24,000 bases of DNA from Acidobacteriota bacterium (GTDB lineage: Bacteria; Actinomycetota; Acidimicrobiia; Spongiisociales; UBA5794): the NCBI GenBank assembly GCA_022566415.1, contig JADFIY010000003.1, positions 14,470 through 38,469 on the forward strand, given 5' to 3'. The position numbers and the translations under genes are program-made. Below, in pieces: positions 10,382 to 20,532 of the stretch (positions are counted from its first letter, which is position 1; each line of letters opens with the position of its first letter). The notes beneath the pieces were generated by a model that saw only the letters and a list, made by a program, of their open reading frames with translations, was not told the DNA's origin and ran no database searches.

Positions 10382-10423
10382 GAGTCGTAAGTCGCAAGTC
10401 GCAAGTCGCAAGTCGCAGGTCCC
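10382..10423. repeat. Heptanucleotide tandem array (AAGTCGC)n
   Basis: GAGTCGT AAGTCGC AAGTCGC AAGTCGC AAGTCGC AGGTCCC: four perfect units flanked by degenerate ones. Confidence 0.95.
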
Positions 10424-15612: not shown

Positions 15613-16605
15613 TTAGCCGGGGAACGGTAGCCCCGCCGGGCCCTTGCGGACCACGGCGGCCCACACCGTGTCGTAGTGGTCCCTGTCGAACGCATCGATA
15701 TGGGGGAGGACGAACTCCTCCCAGGCGCTCCGTAACGGATCCTCGGCCTCGGCGTACATATCGAGACCGGCGGGGAGGCGGTCGAGGACCGTTCGAAGAC
15801 TCATCGGCGTTTCCACCCTGGTGGTAGCGTCGCCGGCTATGAACGACTCGTTGATCTCGACGGCGAGCTTCGGGATCATCTCGACGAGCTCCTTGCGCAT
15901 GTCCGGATGGCGGCGCAGCAGCATCAGCTGAAGCTCATCCTCTGACGGGAATTCCTTCTCCCAGATGATCCATCGGTCGGCGAAGGCCTTGTTCAGGGTC
16001 TGGGTCCCGGCATAGTCCCTCAGGTCAGTCGGGTTGAACGTTCCGAACACGCGCACATCATCGCGGAGGCGAACCATCTCCCCGGTCGGGAGCTCGAGCG
16101 CCTGGTGGCGATCGAGGAGCCCATGCAACGCGAACAGGGTCTCGGCTCCTGCGGCATTCAACTCCGAAAGGTTCACCAACGCCGGTCCGCGAATAGCTCT
16201 GGTGATGTCGCCATCCTCCCACCGGCTCTCGGTGCCACCCTTGCCATCACCGTGCAGCTTCACCGACCCGATGAGGGTGATGTCTCGCACTTCACCGGTC
16301 AGGGGGATGCGGTAGTAGGGGAGCCTGGTGAGCGCGGCGAATTGCTCGAGGTCGTGGTCCTTTCCTGTGCCCATGTGACCTCGCAGCGCAAGGTGGAGTG
16401 GGATCCCCTCGAAGCGGCTCTTTCTGGTCTGTTCGAGCATGGCGAGGCGGTACAGCATGCCGATGTCGACGTAGTAGGGATCGGGCTCCGGGATGTGGTC
16501 GTGGCGCAGATCGGCGTCTGGGACGTCTTTTGGAATCGTCACCGTTTCCAGCTCAATTGGTTTCCCCACGCCTGCGGGATCCTCGAAGGTGACGGTGTCG
16601 GCCAT
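15613..16605 (-). CDS. AAA+ ATPase, CobS/MoxR (AAA_5) type
   Basis: P-loop GHMGTGKD (16357-16380), Walker B region ALVNLSELNA (16153-16182), and the CobS-like FGTFNPTDLRDYAGTQTLNKAFADRW. The track ORF starts at GTG 16662 and overlaps the upstream gene. I prefer ATG 16605, with AGGAG 4 nt upstream and 8 nt after the upstream stop. Confidence 0.85.
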   Translation of the reverse strand: MADTVTFEDPAGVGKPIELETVTIPKDVPDADLRHDHIPEPDPYYVDIGMLYRLAMLEQTRKSRFEGIPLHLALRGHMGTGKDHDLEQFAALTRLPYYRIPLTGEVRDITLIGSVKLHGDGKGGTESRWEDGDITRAIRGPALVNLSELNAAGAETLFALHGLLDRHQALELPTGEMVRLRDDVRVFGTFNPTDLRDYAGTQTLNKAFADRWIIWEKEFPSEDELQLMLLRRHPDMRKELVEMIPKLAVEINESFIAGDATTRVETPMSLRTVLDRLPAGLDMYAEAEDPLRSAWEEFVLPHIDAFDRDHYDTVWAAVVRKGPAGLPFPG

Positions 16606-16613
16606 GGTGCTCC

Positions 16614-18842
16614 TCAGTTGGCGTATGAGTTGTCTGTGATCTGTCGGGTTGCGTCCATCCACCAGCTACCGCCGCCGCCTGCTGTGATCGAGCGGAACAG
16701 CGACGCTCGCACCCCGTCGATCATCGCCGTGGCGAGCGCATCCGGCTGCTGGACGACAGCGTTGCGTTGATAGGCGGCCTGCACGGTGTCGTCCCCGATC
16801 CCTATCCCGAGCACGGTCGTGCCGCCGCGATCGATCGACGATGTGGTCGCGGCGAGGGCGGCGACCGAGCCGCGGGTCATCCCGTCGGCGAGCACGACGA
16901 TGATTCGATGCGACACGTTGCGCGACGAGAGCCGCTCTGCAGCGTAGGCGAGGTTGAACTCATCGACGTTGGCGGCCTTGTCGAACATCGCCAACGGAGG
17001 GGCGACGAGTGGGTTCCTGCGGGTCTCTCTGACGGCTTCCCGCGGTGTGGCCGCCATCCAGAACAAGCCGGCGAGGACCTCTTCAGCGCCGCGCCATCGG
17101 TCGCTGAACCGCTTGACGAGATAGTGGTTGACGGTGAGGGTGAGTCGCTCCGCGGAACCACCCTGGGTTCGCCGGAGCGCCCCGGTCGTTCTTCCCCGGC
17201 GCTCGACATACGAGCGCTGTGTGTCGTCGGGCGCCGCAACGAACCCGCGGTTGAAGATGGCCACCTCGAACTCGATCTGTAGCTCGTCGGCGAGCCGCGC
17301 CAGCGTCCAGGCGCCGAGGATGGCGGCGGCGAGCGCCCACGGCTTCTTGCGCCCATTGGGCAGCTCGCGGGCCTGAAGCATCGATGCCGAGCCGTCTACG
17401 AGCAGGCTGACTCCGTAGGACCGCCGGTTGGGCAGATCGCGCCGCTCAAACATTCGCTCGTAGAAGCCACCGGCCAGGAGGAGCGGCGTGTACGGAGAGA
17501 GGTCACCGGCATCGAACCCGGTGCGTAGTCCCCTGCGCTGGTTGGCGAGAAACAACGGATAGAGCGCTCCGGACACCCGGCGCTGGGCAACCCCCCACTC
17601 ATCGGCTGCGGCCAGCAGCATCTTGCGACCCTGGGGACCAAACCGGCTGAAGGAGTACGGGAGGTCGGTGACGATGAGTTTGCCGGATTGACCCGTTGGC
17701 AGGTACACCGTTGGGCTGGTCGACACCTTCATCAGCTGATCGGTTGCAGGATCGCCTGCCTGATCCGCCTCCCCATGACGACCGTGCTCGGCAGAAACCG
17801 CCTGCGCCGCCTGGCGGGTCTGCTCGTACGAATCCTGGTCTGCGAGCGGCGGGGTGACCACCCTCACCGCGTCGACACTCTCGACGATTGACGACTGATC
17901 TGCCTCGCGGCCCTCGCTCCGGCCGATGGGGGCGTCGGCTGCTGCCCCCTCGGTGAGGATGCCGTGCATACGCGCCACCTCGATCAGCTGGAGCGCGACC
18001 CCACCGACCGTCCACGGATCTTCCAACTCGGGCATCGGGTCGAGGAAGGGCATGGCGTCGTCGATGGCCAGGGCAACGTGCGGAGCAGCCATCTTCTGCA
18101 ACGCCTCCCGATCGAGATAGTCGCCGACGAGCAGGAAACAGGCCAGGGCGAATTGGCCGAGCGGCCTTGCTTTGGCGAACCCACCGGGGACCGCCGCCCG
18201 GTACAGGTCGGAGAGCACAGACCGGGCTCCAGGAAAGGGCGCCATGTGCTTGCGTTCCTGGCGAGCGTCCTCGATGGCGAAGAACATCGCCTGGGCGGCC
18301 GGACCGGCCACCGTGCTCAGCGCATCGAGGAGCGATACGGCCGACACCGTCGGCACGTCGTCATAGCGGTACACCTGATCGTCGTCAGCGGAGGTGGGGT
18401 CAGGCTCGGTCCACTCGTAGGTGGTCAGCTCGGCGAGCGGAGGCGGTTCTGCGGTGTTCTCCAGCGACTCTCGGTGCGCCATCCACGAGTCGGGGATCGG
18501 ACGCTCCTCTTCGAAATCGGTGGCGATCAGGTGCACCGCCTCGTGCAGCGCCGAGGTGAGTGCAACCTCGGTTGGGGTCACCGGAGCCGCCCGTGCGTAC
18601 GCGGCCTGAAACACTCCGGGGTCGATCACGATCTCATCGGGTGAAGCGGACGCTTGCGAACCGAGTCGCACCGTGAGCTCATCGTTGCCTGCGATCGATC
18701 GAGCGAAACGGGTCACCGCCGGTGCGACACGCTGGTAGCGGGCGACAACGGCCTCGATCACCCGATCTTCGGGTGGAAGGACCTCGCGGAGAACTGACTC
18801 ATCGTGGGCGCGCATGAACAGACCATTGTAAGGGCCTGTCAA
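16614..18842 (-). CDS. CobT/NorD-like protein with a C-terminal von Willebrand factor A (VWA) domain and an N-terminal HExxH motif
   Basis: 742 aa. MIDAS-like DGSAS (17382-17396) within SYGVSLLVDGSASM, and a late VWA strand IIVVLADG. CobT-like AIEDARQERKHMAPFPGARSVLSDLY. HEAVH at 18531-18545. The start is uncertain: TTG 18842 or ATG 18815. Confidence 0.8.
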   Translation of the reverse strand: MTGPYNGLFMRAHDESVLREVLPPEDRVIEAVVARYQRVAPAVTRFARSIAGNDELTVRLGSQASASPDEIVIDPGVFQAAYARAAPVTPTEVALTSALHEAVHLIATDFEEERPIPDSWMAHRESLENTAEPPPLAELTTYEWTEPDPTSADDDQVYRYDDVPTVSAVSLLDALSTVAGPAAQAMFFAIEDARQERKHMAPFPGARSVLSDLYRAAVPGGFAKARPLGQFALACFLLVGDYLDREALQKMAAPHVALAIDDAMPFLDPMPELEDPWTVGGVALQLIEVARMHGILTEGAAADAPIGRSEGREADQSSIVESVDAVRVVTPPLADQDSYEQTRQAAQAVSAEHGRHGEADQAGDPATDQLMKVSTSPTVYLPTGQSGKLIVTDLPYSFSRFGPQGRKMLLAAADEWGVAQRRVSGALYPLFLANQRRGLRTGFDAGDLSPYTPLLLAGGFYERMFERRDLPNRRSYGVSLLVDGSASMLQARELPNGRKKPWALAAAILGAWTLARLADELQIEFEVAIFNRGFVAAPDDTQRSYVERRGRTTGALRRTQGGSAERLTLTVNHYLVKRFSDRWRGAEEVLAGLFWMAATPREAVRETRRNPLVAPPLAMFDKAANVDEFNLAYAAERLSSRNVSHRIIVVLADGMTRGSVAALAATTSSIDRGGTTVLGIGIGDDTVQAAYQRNAVVQQPDALATAMIDGVRASLFRSITAGGGGSWWMDATRQITDNSYAN

Positions 18843-18844
18843 AT

Positions 18845-18879
18845 GCGAGTAGCCAGTGGCAAGTAGCAGAACGTCGTAC
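18845..18879. repeat. Degenerate heptanucleotide array (GCNAGTN)n
   Basis: GCGAGTA GCCAGTG GCAAGTA GCAGAAC GTCGTAC, immediately upstream of the VWA gene start. Confidence 0.7.
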
Positions 18880-18913
18880 TTGATAGTTGCCCCGCTGGGG
18901 AGGGAGGGGCGCT

Positions 18914-18955
18914 TCGAGTCCGAGTCGCCAATCGCCAGTCGTGAGTCGCGGTCGG
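18914..18955. repeat. Degenerate heptanucleotide array (NNAGTCG)n
   Basis: TCGAGTC CGAGTCG CCAATCG CCAGTCG TGAGTCG CGGTCGG. It shares the AGTCG core with the arrays at 10382 and 12417. Confidence 0.7.
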
Positions 18956-19027
18956 GTTTCTCCCCCCTTTGGTGTCGTGCTTGGCGATAGTGCGACGGTT
19001 GGGGTCACGGGTGGAGCTTGGGCCTGA

Positions 19028-19270
19028 GGGGGGAGAACCGGCGCACCCGGGGGAGGGGTGCAGGTCTTTGCTCCCCCTCAGGGGGGAGTGCCCCCCGCAG
19101 GGCGGGGAGGGGGGTCGAGCCGTGACTACGACAAACGGTCCAATCCCCTCCGCCTCGCCAAACCTCGGCACCTCCCTCTGAGGTGAGGCAAAGGGTCCGC
19201 CAATGGCGCCTCGCAGCCAAGCGCGACTGTTCACCTTTTGGGGGAGTACCGCCGGAGGCGGGGAGGGGGG
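19028..19270. repeat. Dispersed G-run-rich ~31-34-nt motif: three direct copies plus an inverted degenerate copy
   Basis: Direct copies at 19028-19058, 19081-19114 and 19240-19270 share GGGGGAG-N(12-15)-GG(C)GGGGAGGGG. The inverted degenerate copy is at 19145-19180. Hairpins: CTCCCCC tcag GGGGGAG (19071-19088) and CCCCGC agg GCGGGG (19093-19107). Confidence 0.75.
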
Positions 19271-19367
19271 CTATTTTGAGGCGAGTGGGCGAGCAAACCT
19301 CGACCGCGTAGGTCACGCCGCCCATGTGTGCTGCGATTGGCGGGTGGTGTCAAGCCGTCGGGCCTGG

Positions 19368-19556
19368 TCACTTCTTGGTCCAGAAGGTGTCGCCGCAGTT
19401 AGGGCACTCCAGTTCCACGTCACCACCAGCCCACCAGCTTCCTTTCCGACTCCTCCCCGTCTCGCGGTAGGCAGTGACCGCCACCGGCTTCCCGCAGGCC
19501 TCGCATGGTTTGGTAGTCAGGTCCTGCCACCGGTCCCGCAGCCAATCCAGCATCAC
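19368..19556 (-). CDS. Small zinc-ribbon protein (two CxxC pairs), hypothetical
   Basis: 62-aa ORF MMLDWLRDRWQDLTTKPCEACGKP...ELECPNCGDTFWTKK, with CxxC-N26-CxxC. GTG 19556 is followed by ATG 19553. No clear SD. Confidence 0.45.
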   Translation of the reverse strand: MMLDWLRDRWQDLTTKPCEACGKPVAVTAYRETGRSRKGSWWAGGDVELECPNCGDTFWTKK

Positions 19557-19761: not shown

Positions 19762-20532
19762 TCAGAACCTGAAGTGCTTGACCCCGAGCCCCTCTTCTGC
19801 GATTCGGGTCACCGAATCGATGCCGATCTCGAGGTGAACGTCAGACCATGTCGCGGTCACCTTGCGATCGCTCTCTTGAGTCTTGATGCCTTCTGGTCGT
19901 AGCGGAACATCGGAGACGAGCAAGAGGGCACCGCGGGCAATGCCATTGGCATGACCGACGATGAAGATCGTCGCGGTCTCCATGTCGACTGCGATCGCGG
20001 TCAGCGAGCGCATCTTGTCCAAGAAGCTCAGATCGTGCTCCCAGACGCGGCGGTTCGTCGTATAGACGACGCCGGTCCGATATTCGAGGTGCTTCTTGTC
20101 TACCTCGTCGGACACGATCTTGTGGAGCTCGAACGAAGGCAAGGCCGGAACCGCAGGCGGGAAGTACTCGTCCGACGTCCCCTCACCCCGAATTGCGGCA
20201 ATCGGGAGGATGAAGTGTCCGATCTCCGAGGAGTGCTTCAGGCCGCCGCATTTGCCGAGAAACAGCACGCTCTTGGGATCGACCGCGATGAGGAGATCCA
20301 TCACAGTTGCCGCGTTGGCGGTGCCGATGCCGAAGTTGATGATCGAGATTCCGTCGTCGCTCGTCGCCGACTGCATCGGGAGTCCATTGCCGGCGACGTC
20401 GCAACCAAATCGGTCGGCGAATCGTCCGACGTAGTCGGCAAAGTTCGTCAGCAGGATGTGCGTTCCGAAACCCTCGAGGGGCATTCCCGTGTAACGCGGT
20501 AGCCAATCTCGGGCTATGTCCATTTTTTCCAT
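19762..20532 (-). CDS. AMP nucleosidase-like protein, short form (PNP/UDP phosphorylase-fold catalytic domain only)
   Basis: 256 aa. RYTGMPLEGFGTHILLTNFADYV resembles the start of the Amn catalytic domain. NFGIGTANAA and AVDMETA are PNP_UDP_1-fold motifs. Confidence 0.7.
   Translation of the reverse strand: MEKMDIARDWLPRYTGMPLEGFGTHILLTNFADYVGRFADRFGCDVAGNGLPMQSATSDDGISIINFGIGTANAATVMDLLIAVDPKSVLFLGKCGGLKHSSEIGHFILPIAAIRGEGTSDEYFPPAVPALPSFELHKIVSDEVDKKHLEYRTGVVYTTNRRVWEHDLSFLDKMRSLTAIAVDMETATIFIVGHANGIARGALLLVSDVPLRPEGIKTQESDRKVTATWSDVHLEIGIDSVTRIAEEGLGVKHFRF

Follow-up and report, generated by a model that had tools for sequence, protein, structure and literature searches.

The window that we analysed, a continuous stretch of 24,000 nucleotides, carries on its minus strand two adjoining genes, one for a VWA-domain protein, here called the adaptor, and one for an AAA+ ATPase of the AAA_5 type. 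The adaptor gene is a genuine open reading frame occupying positions 16614 to 18842 when counted from TTG, and its existence stood as given in the first-pass annotation; the 742 amino acids assigned to it there probably did not, because the orthologues begin with MRAHDE and the start is therefore probably ATG 18815, giving 733 residues and placing HEAVH at residues 91–95. This and three further motifs of the same annotation, DGSAS, AIEDARQE, and PGARS, were each found where it had put them, and all features are collected in Table 1. The most likely start of the ATPase is ATG 16605, not GTG 16662, so that the two genes do not overlap. There are more than 1000 homologues of the adaptor, every one of them annotated as a hypothetical protein. 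Rfam and tRNA scans of the 24-kb window gave no matches.

Table 1. Features of the adaptor and ATPase genes (positions in the window; residues counted from the probable ATG starts)
Feature	Position	Strand	Basis or remark
Zincin-VWA adaptor CDS	16614..18815	−	733 aa from ATG 18815 (probable start); orthologue starts MRAHDE
N-terminal CobT_N-type (zincin-like) domain, aa 1–300	17916..18815	−	AF2, Foldseek BFVD, hhalign
HEAVH (H91, E92, H95)	18531..18545	−	On predicted α-helix 81–98 of the AF2 model; aa 100–104 in TTG numbering
Acidic, hypervariable, disordered insert, aa 105–160	18336..18503	−	Composition, alignment, AF2
AIEDARQE block	18255..18278	−	Aligned counterparts: ED.R.E (CobT-like proteins), EQARVE (canonical CobT)
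PGARS	18219..18233	−	Equivalent of FPGS in CobT-like proteins; G196 and S199 invariant
Linker region, aa 300–365	17721..17918	−	Mildly acidic; model confidence mixed
Shaft/finger candidate, aa 410–464	17424..17588	−	Motif correspondence to CobT segment
VWA domain, aa 465–715	16671..17423	−	Foldseek with full-length model; profile search
MIDAS DGSAS (D474, S476, S478)	17382..17396	−	CobT MIDAS definition
Other MIDAS residues	N616 at 16968–16970; D644 at 16884–16886	−	Alignment
CobS-like AAA+ ATPase (AAA_5), 330 aa	15613..16605	−	ATG 16605 after GAGGAG ribosome-binding site
Deviant Walker A GHMGTGKD	16357..16380	−	Asp in place of expected Ser/Thr
Deviant Walker B LVNLSE	16162..16179	−	Ser in place of expected Asp; catalytic Glu kept

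Scanned directly against Pfam and NCBIfam, the adaptor showed VWA matches below threshold and nothing else, and phmmer against PDB sequences returned only noise, with no CobT match. When the full-length model was used as a Foldseek query, the VWA domain of NorD (9qh6_G) was found at an E-value of 7.4e-4, followed by Ku and the MIDAS domain of MDN1; the adaptor family profile matched CobT (9uka_G) at an E-value of 3.7e-4, over the C-terminal VWA domain only. The MIDAS is intact, with D474, S476, S478, N616, and D644 unchanged in all of 32 sequences drawn from two clades, so that the C-terminal VWA domain of the first-pass annotation was borne out. Its low-complexity or acidic linker at residues 300–470 held up in part: only residues from about 300 to 365 were linker-like, and residues 366–464 contain elements that are structured and conserved, as well as the most conserved segment of the protein, residues 410–464 (AF2 pLDDT of 26–36). 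By motif, this segment appears to correspond to the part of CobT immediately before VWA strand β1, which forms the shaft inserted in the pore. The stretch that is really acidic, hypervariable, and disordered is instead residues 105–160, inside the N-domain, where it separates the HExxH helix from a helix further downstream; one 50-residue window here (92–141, or 101–150 in TTG numbering) contained 13 D/E and 2 K/R, the pLDDT was below 50, and the length varied among orthologues.

The AF2 model of the N-domain (residues 1–300) had a pLDDT of 78.9 and a pTM of 0.76. Searched against BFVD with Foldseek, it matched CobT-like proteins of phages over their N-terminal parts (E-value of 1e-4, probability 1.0); hhalign against CobT-like proteins gave 95.5% for the N-domain and only 64% for the N-terminal half. 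From composition alone the expected number of HExxH motifs in the adaptor was 0.0098. The motif was invariant in 120 of 120 adaptor orthologues at 64% identity or above, and also in a second, marine clade just 30% or so identical to the first; no more than 29 N-domain columns are invariant between the clades, and H91, E92, and H95 belong to them, so that both His and the Glu singled out in the first-pass annotation have survived this divergence. Both hhalign and Foldseek against BFVD lined the motif up with the HExxH found in CobT-like relatives; of 30 distant CobT-like proteins 24 have kept it, and so has gp049 of phage SSU5. The adaptor is thus not alone in having HExxH, which is usual among non-canonical CobT-like proteins; the canonical, structurally solved CobT has SMALR at the aligned position. 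Further downstream, E187 of the AIEDARQE block was invariant and D100 was conserved in at least 90% of sequences, making both candidates for a third metal ligand; residues E182–D183 of the same block were not kept in the marine clade, which has V and H there. A conserved general-base Glu such as E92 is not required by metal binding alone.

The crystal structure of the CobT N-domain has been described as M48C-peptidase-like in a 2026 preprint (bioRxiv 10.64898/2026.07.21.739949). Because HExxH is invariant in the adaptor and kept in its CobT-like relatives, and because the CobT N-domain is called M48-peptidase-like, there is indirect support for a zincin fold bearing a conserved motif in the adaptor N-domain, the zincin assignment being one preprint's comparison for CobT, carried over by remote homology. 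Foldseek with the model of residues 1–300, a check that the first-pass annotation had proposed, returned neither a zincin nor any other significant match from the PDB (best E-value of 0.41); the library evidently predates the CobT structures. Metallopeptidases in BFVD were matched only insignificantly (E-values of 0.66 and 2.3), the adaptor matched no peptidase family in Pfam, NCBIfam, or MEROPS-type collections, and the N-domain of P0241, a CobT-like protein that lacks the motif, had no match in the PDB by phmmer.

The ATPase matched midasin, CobS, CbbQ, and NorQ, the alignment with CobS spanning 237 residues. Its GKD Walker A and SE Walker B were present in 69 of 69 sequences (the protein of the window and 68 orthologues), and the marine-clade ATPases carry the GKD Walker A as well. 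Residues E167, N210, R230, and R290 are invariant. With these non-canonical Walker residues, the ATPase could be catalytically impaired. Our literature search for such a GKD/SE swap found no report.

To judge from a tblastn table of 71 orthologous loci, the association of the two genes is regular: the AAA_5 gene lay directly after the VWA gene in 66, and the other five were cut by a contig end or fell under the coverage filter. The genes adjoin in the same orientation, an arrangement conserved across orthologues, and the loci share a neighbourhood in which dapB, M16, and arfB are followed by VWA, AAA, yajQ, LOG, DinB, BtpA, and lhr. The pairing also occurs in the marine clade, whose DNA has 31% GC and which, from its GC content and source, suggests streamlined Actinomarinales of about 1.1 Mb. 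The two genes are a syntenic core gene pair of the class Acidimicrobiia, the marine clade included. The ATPase is 70–86% identical among orthologues at a fixed housekeeping position, and inheritance of the locus looks vertical. A representative search of the whole database gave 199 matches, mostly fragments, and limited the adaptor family proper to one lineage; there is therefore no orthologue in a studied organism from which a function might be transferred. A conserved third gene, client or partner, was sought around the loci and none was found: yajQ and the LOG-like gene come after the two genes at many loci, though not at every one, and are missing from the marine clade, and an upstream ORF for a 62-residue zinc ribbon is shared by the two closest relatives only. 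Retention of the pair throughout the class and in the marine clade suggests that it serves an important housekeeping client.

Three kinds of AAA+/VWA pair invite comparison. The first is CobS/CobT of the cobaltochelatase CobSTN (PDB 9uka, 9ujv, and 21vu). As there, the AAA_5 ATPase and adaptor genes are adjacent, and the adaptor follows the CobT order of N-domain, linker, shaft, and VWA domain with a MIDAS (D-x-S-x-S, N, D); alignment extends to the ED.R.E/EQARVE block and to the stretch just ahead of VWA strand β1. It differs from CobT in possessing HExxH, an acidic insert of about 55 residues within the N-domain, and a less acidic linker; the ATPase differs from CobS in its Walker swap, and the adaptor gene comes first here. 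By its sequence, then, the adaptor is a far-diverged CobT-type protein, only remotely CobT-like. The second kind comprises viral and phage-plasmid CobS/CobT-like pairs (phrog_1576, phrog_5298, phrog_17276, phrog_459 ‘peptidase’, and phrog_249), annotated by name carry-over, with examples in Salmonella phage SSU5 (gp049/gp050), Gordonia phages GMA3 and GMA7, and tailed viruses of haloarchaea. They share with the pair described here the N-domain fold, the HExxH, ED.R.E, and MIDAS motifs, and an AAA_5 partner, at N-domain identities of about 12–17%; whereas they are mobile or viral and their ATPases have a canonical GK[ST] Walker A, the Acidimicrobiia pair is chromosomal, core, and vertically inherited in one class. 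The third kind is NorQ/NorD, together with CbbQ/CbbO, NorD being the closest match to the VWA domain among solved structures. The mechanism is likely to be shared, with a finger in the pore, the N-terminal domain on the small domain of the ATPase, and the MIDAS turned to the client. The clients of those systems, cNOR and Rubisco, are encoded nearby, unlike here, where no client gene is linked; and the published NorQD study reports no HExxH or peptidase-like feature in the NorD N-terminal domain. Two analogies, drawn partly from general knowledge, are looser: FtsH, an AAA+ ATPase fused to an M41 zincin, couples ATPase to HExxH peptidase, and self-cleaving CLCA combines an HExxH zincin domain with a MIDAS-bearing VWA domain. 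In both, the peptidase parts are without detectable homology to the adaptor, and they differ from the present pair in AAA+ clade and in its having the components on two polypeptides.

We propose, with about even confidence, that the two genes encode an ATP-driven remodeller of the CobS/CobT and NorQ/NorD type that does not insert cobalt, and whose N-domain is most likely a metal-binding peptidase, since it keeps HExxH and an invariant downstream Glu on a fold described as zincin-like for CobT. The known complexes provide the geometry: in CobST the shaft lies in the ring and CobT_N is bound to the CobS small domain (bioRxiv 10.64898/2026.07.21.739949), and a finger-in-pore model has been put forward for NorQD. 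By homology, the 330-residue AAA+ protein would assemble as a ring, the adaptor N-domain would dock onto the ATPase lid, and the conserved shaft (residues 410–464) would enter the pore, leaving the MIDAS face to meet an acidic residue on the client, which is presumably one of the housekeeping proteins of Acidimicrobiia. Hydrolysis of ATP would then twist or pull adaptor and client, and the N-domain, having bound metal, would cleave either the captured client or the adaptor's own linker. As the adaptor retains the zinc-protease motif lost from CobT, it may cut its client and not merely grip it.

The strongest competitor, which we regard as a real possibility and still an unlikely one, is that the adaptor is a pseudo-protease whose N-domain serves for docking only, to the ATPase lid and to the client, HExxH being a non-catalytic structural metal site or peptide-binding relic. 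The equivalent domain in CobSTN is a pure docking module touching the CobS small domain and CobN; the motif has decayed in some CobT-like relatives, losing its Glu in P0226 (HLLGH) and disappearing wholly from P0241; and the failure of any peptidase family or solved zincin to match the N-domain points the same way. Against it, all three motif residues, the catalytic Glu included, have stayed invariant over a deep divergence in which most of the N-domain drifts, and where the family has taken up a docking-only role, as in canonical CobT, the motif is entirely gone. Rather improbable, in our estimation, is a metal-delivery adaptor, in which an HExxH...E site would carry a metal ion for insertion into a client metalloprotein. 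AAA+/VWA pairs of the MoxR/CobS class usually aid metal or cofactor insertion, the part that chelatases, NorQD, and CoxDE play in inserting metals would fit, and so would the structural nearness of the VWA domain to NorD; yet NorD and CobT function without an HExxH-type site, metal carriage has no need of a conserved general base, and among the orthologous loci no metalloenzyme gene was consistently linked to the pair.

We consider it very unlikely that these proteins are a true, highly divergent cobaltochelatase CobS/CobT pair whose CobN is encoded at another place in the genome, even though no named proteins come nearer to them in sequence than CobT and CobS and some Acidimicrobiia lineages carry cobalamin genes. 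The scores lie far under the family cutoffs: the ATPase reached 49.3 bits with the CobS equivalog TIGR01650, for which the cutoff is 558.55, the adaptor reached 16 bits with CobT_C (PF11775; cutoff of 21 bits, E-value of 0.01), and a scan with the CobT N-domain of Pfam (PF06213) did not match it. The 24-kb window contains no cob genes, as the first-pass annotation had said, and among the large ORFs within 10 kb of the 71 orthologous loci we found no CobN domain and hence no cobN linked to the orthologues; these ORFs were MMPL, SLC12-type permeases, FtsX, PGA_cap, and RHS toxin, and others were antisense artefacts of high-GC DNA. The suspicion that a cobaltochelatase label would be a name carry-over is upheld by these scores and this context. 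The HExxH that stands in place of the SMALR of CobT, and the keeping of the pair by the streamlined marine clade, also argue against a chelatase; Actinomarinales-like marine genomes, of about 1.1 Mb, show a pattern of vitamin dependence resembling that of other streamlined marine microbes. So does the HExxH-bearing homologue in phage SSU5, whose host, Salmonella, uses the CbiK pathway and is not known to have CobN. A ternary vWA-MoxR system for conflict or phage defence is scarcely credible, although the combination of a MoxR-clade AAA+ protein, a vWA protein, and a peptidase-like domain resembles such systems (Kaur et al. 2020) and the first-pass annotation had likened the pair to coupled MoxR-vWA systems. 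It was rejected because PADLOC gave no match, a third VMAP-type gene and an effector domain are both absent, and throughout the class the locus keeps a fixed, syntenic place between housekeeping genes, with inheritance that looks vertical. The finger-in-pore remodellers CobST and NorQD are closer analogues.

A broader form of the peptidase proposal, which we put forward tentatively and think unlikely, is that the Acidimicrobiia pair and the mostly viral CobS/CobT-like pairs that keep HExxH make up a distinct two-component class of ATP-dependent metalloproteases or maturases, with CobT as a derived pseudo-protease offshoot and the Walker swap compensated. In this scheme the pull on the adaptor shaft would come from a CobS/MoxR-type ring while the MIDAS held the client and the zincin domain cut it. 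If this were true, the widespread label ‘cobalamin/porphyrin biosynthesis’ would be a misannotation of the phage genes, and the AAA+ motor would still work with its Mg-ATP site rewired, the change of Ser/Thr to Asp in Walker A being compensated by that of Asp to Ser in Walker B. The reciprocal swap is a natural experiment on Mg2+ coordination in P-loop ATPases.

The locus adds to the Acidimicrobiia a class-wide core gene pair that was previously without annotation, and in practice it is inadvisable to annotate either gene as a cobaltochelatase subunit. An active HExxH domain would mean that a VWA adaptor links a MoxR/CobS-type AAA+ ring to a peptidase, an arrangement of which we found no description in the literature. 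The common ‘cobS/cobT’ auxiliary genes of phages, present even where the hosts lack CobN, would then have to be reread, and the CobT of cobaltochelatase would be, by origin, a disabled protease.

The open reading frame that the first-pass annotation had assigned to the adaptor, the zincin-VWA (CobT-like) protein, was present in the sequence, and all of its motif coordinates were right (see table), but its length of 742 aa is probably too great. Because orthologues begin at MRAHDE, translation most probably starts at ATG 18815, and the predicted product has 733 aa. This ATG lacks a Shine-Dalgarno sequence (window 18816-18845, -), and a TACAAT box (-) stops 9 nt short of it, suggesting that the adaptor transcript is leaderless or near-leaderless. 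In contrast, the gene for the ATPase, the CobS-like AAA_5 protein encoded next on this strand, has a strong GAGGAG site before its probable start at ATG 16605; the marine ATPase orthologue also begins with MAD.

Features of the adaptor-ATPase locus and of related loci
Feature	Position	Remark
Adaptor ORF	16614..18842 (-)
HEAVH	18531-18545; aa 91-95	aa in 733-aa numbering
AIEDARQE	18255-18278
PGARS	18219-18233
DGSAS	17382-17396
Adaptor long helix	aa 16-42	AF2 N-domain model
Adaptor two strands	aa 48-51, 61-64	AF2 N-domain model; then short helix
Adaptor HExxH helix	aa 81-98	AF2 N-domain model; then short strand
Adaptor disordered, acidic, length-variable insert	about aa 105-160	AF2 N-domain model
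Adaptor helix	aa 109-119	AF2 N-domain model
Adaptor helix bundle	aa 162-309	AF2 N-domain model
Adaptor linker	about aa 300-365	full-length model
Adaptor strand-helix unit	aa 366-409	full-length model
Adaptor low-confidence segment	aa 410-464	full-length model
Adaptor VWA core, confident	aa 467-672	full-length model
ATPase gene	15613-16605 (-)
ATPase Walker A, GHMGTGKD	16357-16380 (-)
ATPase Walker B, LVNLSE	16162-16179 (-)
Zinc-ribbon-like ORF	19368-19556 (-)	relatives L001:427-612, L042:6481-6666
Non-coding stretch	about 18861-19361
GGCGGGGAGGGGGG, two copies	19101, 19257	non-coding stretch
Imperfect inverted repeat	19008-19032 / 19073-19097	non-coding stretch
GTCGC-rich motifs, sigma-factor gene	10383-10410	AGTCGTAAGTCGCA then AGTCGCAAGTCGCA
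GTCGC-rich motif, adaptor gene	about 18925-18955	GACTGGCGATTGGCGACTCGGACTCG
PNP_UDP_1 gene	19762-20532 (-)
RHS-repeat/TcdB-type toxin ORF	L027:13747-22197 (-)
SSU5 gp049	L077:3956-6301

An unannotated 62-aa ORF precedes the adaptor gene in the same orientation; two CxxC pairs (CEACG...CPNCG) make it zinc-ribbon-like, and it was kept, at 84-87% amino acid identity, only in the two closest relatives, the orthologous loci L001 and L042. About 500 bp of non-coding DNA separates it from the adaptor gene. This stretch, which is absent from L001 (the gap there is 52 bp) and partly present in L042, contains a repeated sequence and a 25-nt imperfect inverted repeat, gave no match in Rfam, and may be a small inserted element. 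Similar GTCGC-rich short tandem motifs stand upstream of the adaptor gene and of a sigma-factor gene. A nucleoside phosphorylase gene (PNP_UDP_1) was found at the arfB/adaptor junction only in the window and in L042, which is 95% identical; elsewhere arfB and the adaptor gene are no more than about 60-100 bp apart, and the phosphorylase gene looks like a lineage-specific insertion.

The adaptor has more than 1000 close homologues, which come from Acidimicrobiia-type MAGs; every listed source name was 'hypothetical protein', and none carried a precomputed Pfam domain. When 1.84 billion representative proteins were searched index-free with the adaptor, only 199 matched, nearly all of them fragments of its own family. 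The 199 included one divergent full-length clade, whose representative is P0130 (650 aa, about 30% identity), and about 30 full-length proteins of 500-800 aa that matched at the VWA C-terminus only; those sampled carried Pfam CobT and/or CobT_C. At essentially all of 71 genome loci the ATPase gene directly followed the adaptor gene, in a conserved neighbourhood of dapB-M16 peptidase-(methyltransferase)-arfB, diverging from VWA-AAA-yajQ-LOG-like-DinB/MDMPI-BtpA-lhr. Identity across nearly all of these loci was 70-86% for the ATPase and 50-83% for the adaptor, with the two most divergent, L070 and L071, below. The P0130 clade, from 31%-GC marine DNA, has the pair in the corresponding place on the chromosome (in the order dapB, VWA-AAA_5, MDMPI_N-BtpA); from GC content and source we infer that it fits Ca. 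Actinomarinales, whose genomes have 32.5% GC and 1.1 Mb (Actinomarinales paper). We concluded from the conserved neighbourhood and this shared position that the pair belongs to the core of a bacterial class and is inherited vertically, and is not an island. Across the loci compared, marine clade included, no third gene was universally linked to it.

At locus L027 a 2817-aa toxin ORF immediately downstream of the ATPase gene takes the place of the usual yajQ-LOG genes. Contigs L001, L003, L038, L042, and L054, submitted as MAGs of Kiloniellales, Saprospiraceae, Acidobacteria or Gammaproteobacteria, carry the Acidimicrobiia-syntenic locus; these foreign labels are probably binning or labelling errors.

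The adaptor was modelled over its N-terminal 310 residues (AF2; pLDDT 78.9, pTM 0.76) and at full length (pLDDT 68). The MIDAS residues D474, S476, S478, N616, and D644 were invariant in the two-clade alignment and match the CobT set D422, S424, S426, N518, and D546 of the CobSTN preprint (bioRxiv 10.64898/2026.07.21.739949). The best-conserved part of the adaptor was the low-confidence segment, though poorly modelled; through a shared G.RSG...F.RR...LLVD.S.SM consensus it corresponds to the CobT stretch just before VWA strand beta1, within which Q373-R413 form the 'shaft' entering the CobS ring (same preprint). With the full-length model, Foldseek placed the NorD VWA of NorQD complexes first (E 7.4e-4), followed by Ku and MDN1 MIDAS domains.

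Compared with solved structures by Foldseek, the N-domain model matched no peptidase and nothing significant (best E-value 0.41). In a comparison with structures predicted for viral proteins it aligned along some 300 columns (probability 1.0) with the N-terminal regions of 'CobT-like' proteins of Gordonia phages GMA3 and GMA7, of proteins from haloarchaeal viruses, and of uncultured-phage 'cobalt chelatase CobT subunit' proteins. In profile-profile comparison with 21 distant CobT-like proteins the adaptor matched from the ED.R.E block onwards (probability 95.5%, E 1.5e-8), and its N-terminal half alone also matched (probability 64%, E 6.6e-5), with both HExxH motifs in register. The distant set matched solved CobT at E 5e-71, a match that takes in the N-domain of CobT (i-E 5.7e-10; E 6.6e-4 against 21vu_H, the N-terminal chain by itself). 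Through this remote homology the zincin fold, described for the CobT N-domain in one preprint, may be transferred to the adaptor, whose N-domain we call zincin-like.

The chance expectation of HExxH from the adaptor's composition was 0.0098. H91, E92, H95, and E187 were invariant in both Acidimicrobiia clades (29 invariant columns of ~310). Of 30 distant full-length relatives, 24 have the motif at the corresponding site, and in one relative its region was matched by PHROG 459, labelled 'peptidase'. Solved CobT (PDB 9uka_G) reads GLGDSMALRQARHN (SMALR) and EQARVE at the sites that hold HExxH and ED.R.E in the majority of CobT-like proteins. Judged by motif status across the superfamily, HExxH is the common, conserved state, and it was lost in the experimentally characterised cobaltochelatase subunit. 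In the literature searched, no paper analysed the motif. In Salmonella phage SSU5, gp049, named 'porphyrin biosynthesis protein', has HEVAH, EDVFIE, and DLSGS and lies next to a CobS-like gene. Its host is not known to have CobN, and phage genes of this kind may be misannotated as cobalamin/porphyrin genes.

The best PDB sequence matches of the ATPase were midasin, CobS, CbbQ, and NorQ. Relative to CobS, Asp replaces Ser/Thr in its Walker A (GYHGTGKS in CobS) and Ser replaces Asp in its Walker B (..VFDE in CobS). In 69/69 sequences, and in the marine clade too, the Mg-coordinating Ser/Thr has traded places with the Walker B Asp. The catalytic Glu, the sensor 1 Asn, the Arg finger, and the sensor 2 Arg were all invariant, and ATPases adjoining the distant HExxH adaptors have a normal GK[ST]. 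Since the P-loop Ser/Thr and Walker B Asp normally hydrogen-bond to each other around Mg2+, we infer that the swap is a compensated pair in a working enzyme. No report of a GKD/SE swap was found in a literature search.

We propose that the pair would work like CobST and NorQD. By homology with these, the ATPase would form a ring, with the adaptor N-domain on its lid domain and the adaptor shaft in its pore; the MIDAS face would bind an acidic residue of a client, and ATP hydrolysis would twist or stretch adaptor and client. The extra element here would be the zincin-like domain, a predicted peptidase whose substrate might be the client, or else the linker or acidic insert of the adaptor itself. 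Its HExxH, intact including the general-base Glu, favours a peptidase role, and we give the whole statement, a remodelling machine with such a role, about an even chance. It is rather unlikely that the domain is a pseudo-protease serving for docking only, and distinctly improbable that it is a metal-delivery site.

Less credible still is a true cobaltochelatase with a distant CobN. The CobS equivalog cutoff is 558 bits, and the ATPase reached 49; the adaptor had no match to Pfam CobT and a sub-threshold one to CobT_C. The ORFs of 800 aa or more lying up to 10 kb from the 71 loci include no CobN, the real ones being Lhr, MMPL, SLC12-type permeases, FtsX, PGA_cap, and an RHS toxin, and the window itself, as first reported, holds no cob genes. 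Because sequence cutoffs, CobN context within 10 kb, and motif state all failed, membership in cobaltochelatase CobT/CobS was rejected, which bears out the earlier view that such a label would probably be a carry-over. In their pattern of vitamin dependence Actinomarinales resemble other streamlined marine bacteria (Actinomarinales paper). That the pair is a conflict system we consider scarcely believable.

The pair belongs to a broader group of functionally uncharacterised CobS/CobT-like pairs, abundant in viruses, within which it forms a new and very divergent branch, chromosomal and class-wide, whose ATPase site is unique. In the haloarchaeal virus HHTV-2 (BFVD R4T663) the cobT-like gene is split, one protein carrying the N-domain (355 aa) and another the VWA domain (PMC8651126), suggesting that the two halves can work as separate chains. 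For the proposed peptidase role, this split agrees with the notion that a cut in the linker could do no harm or could even be of use.
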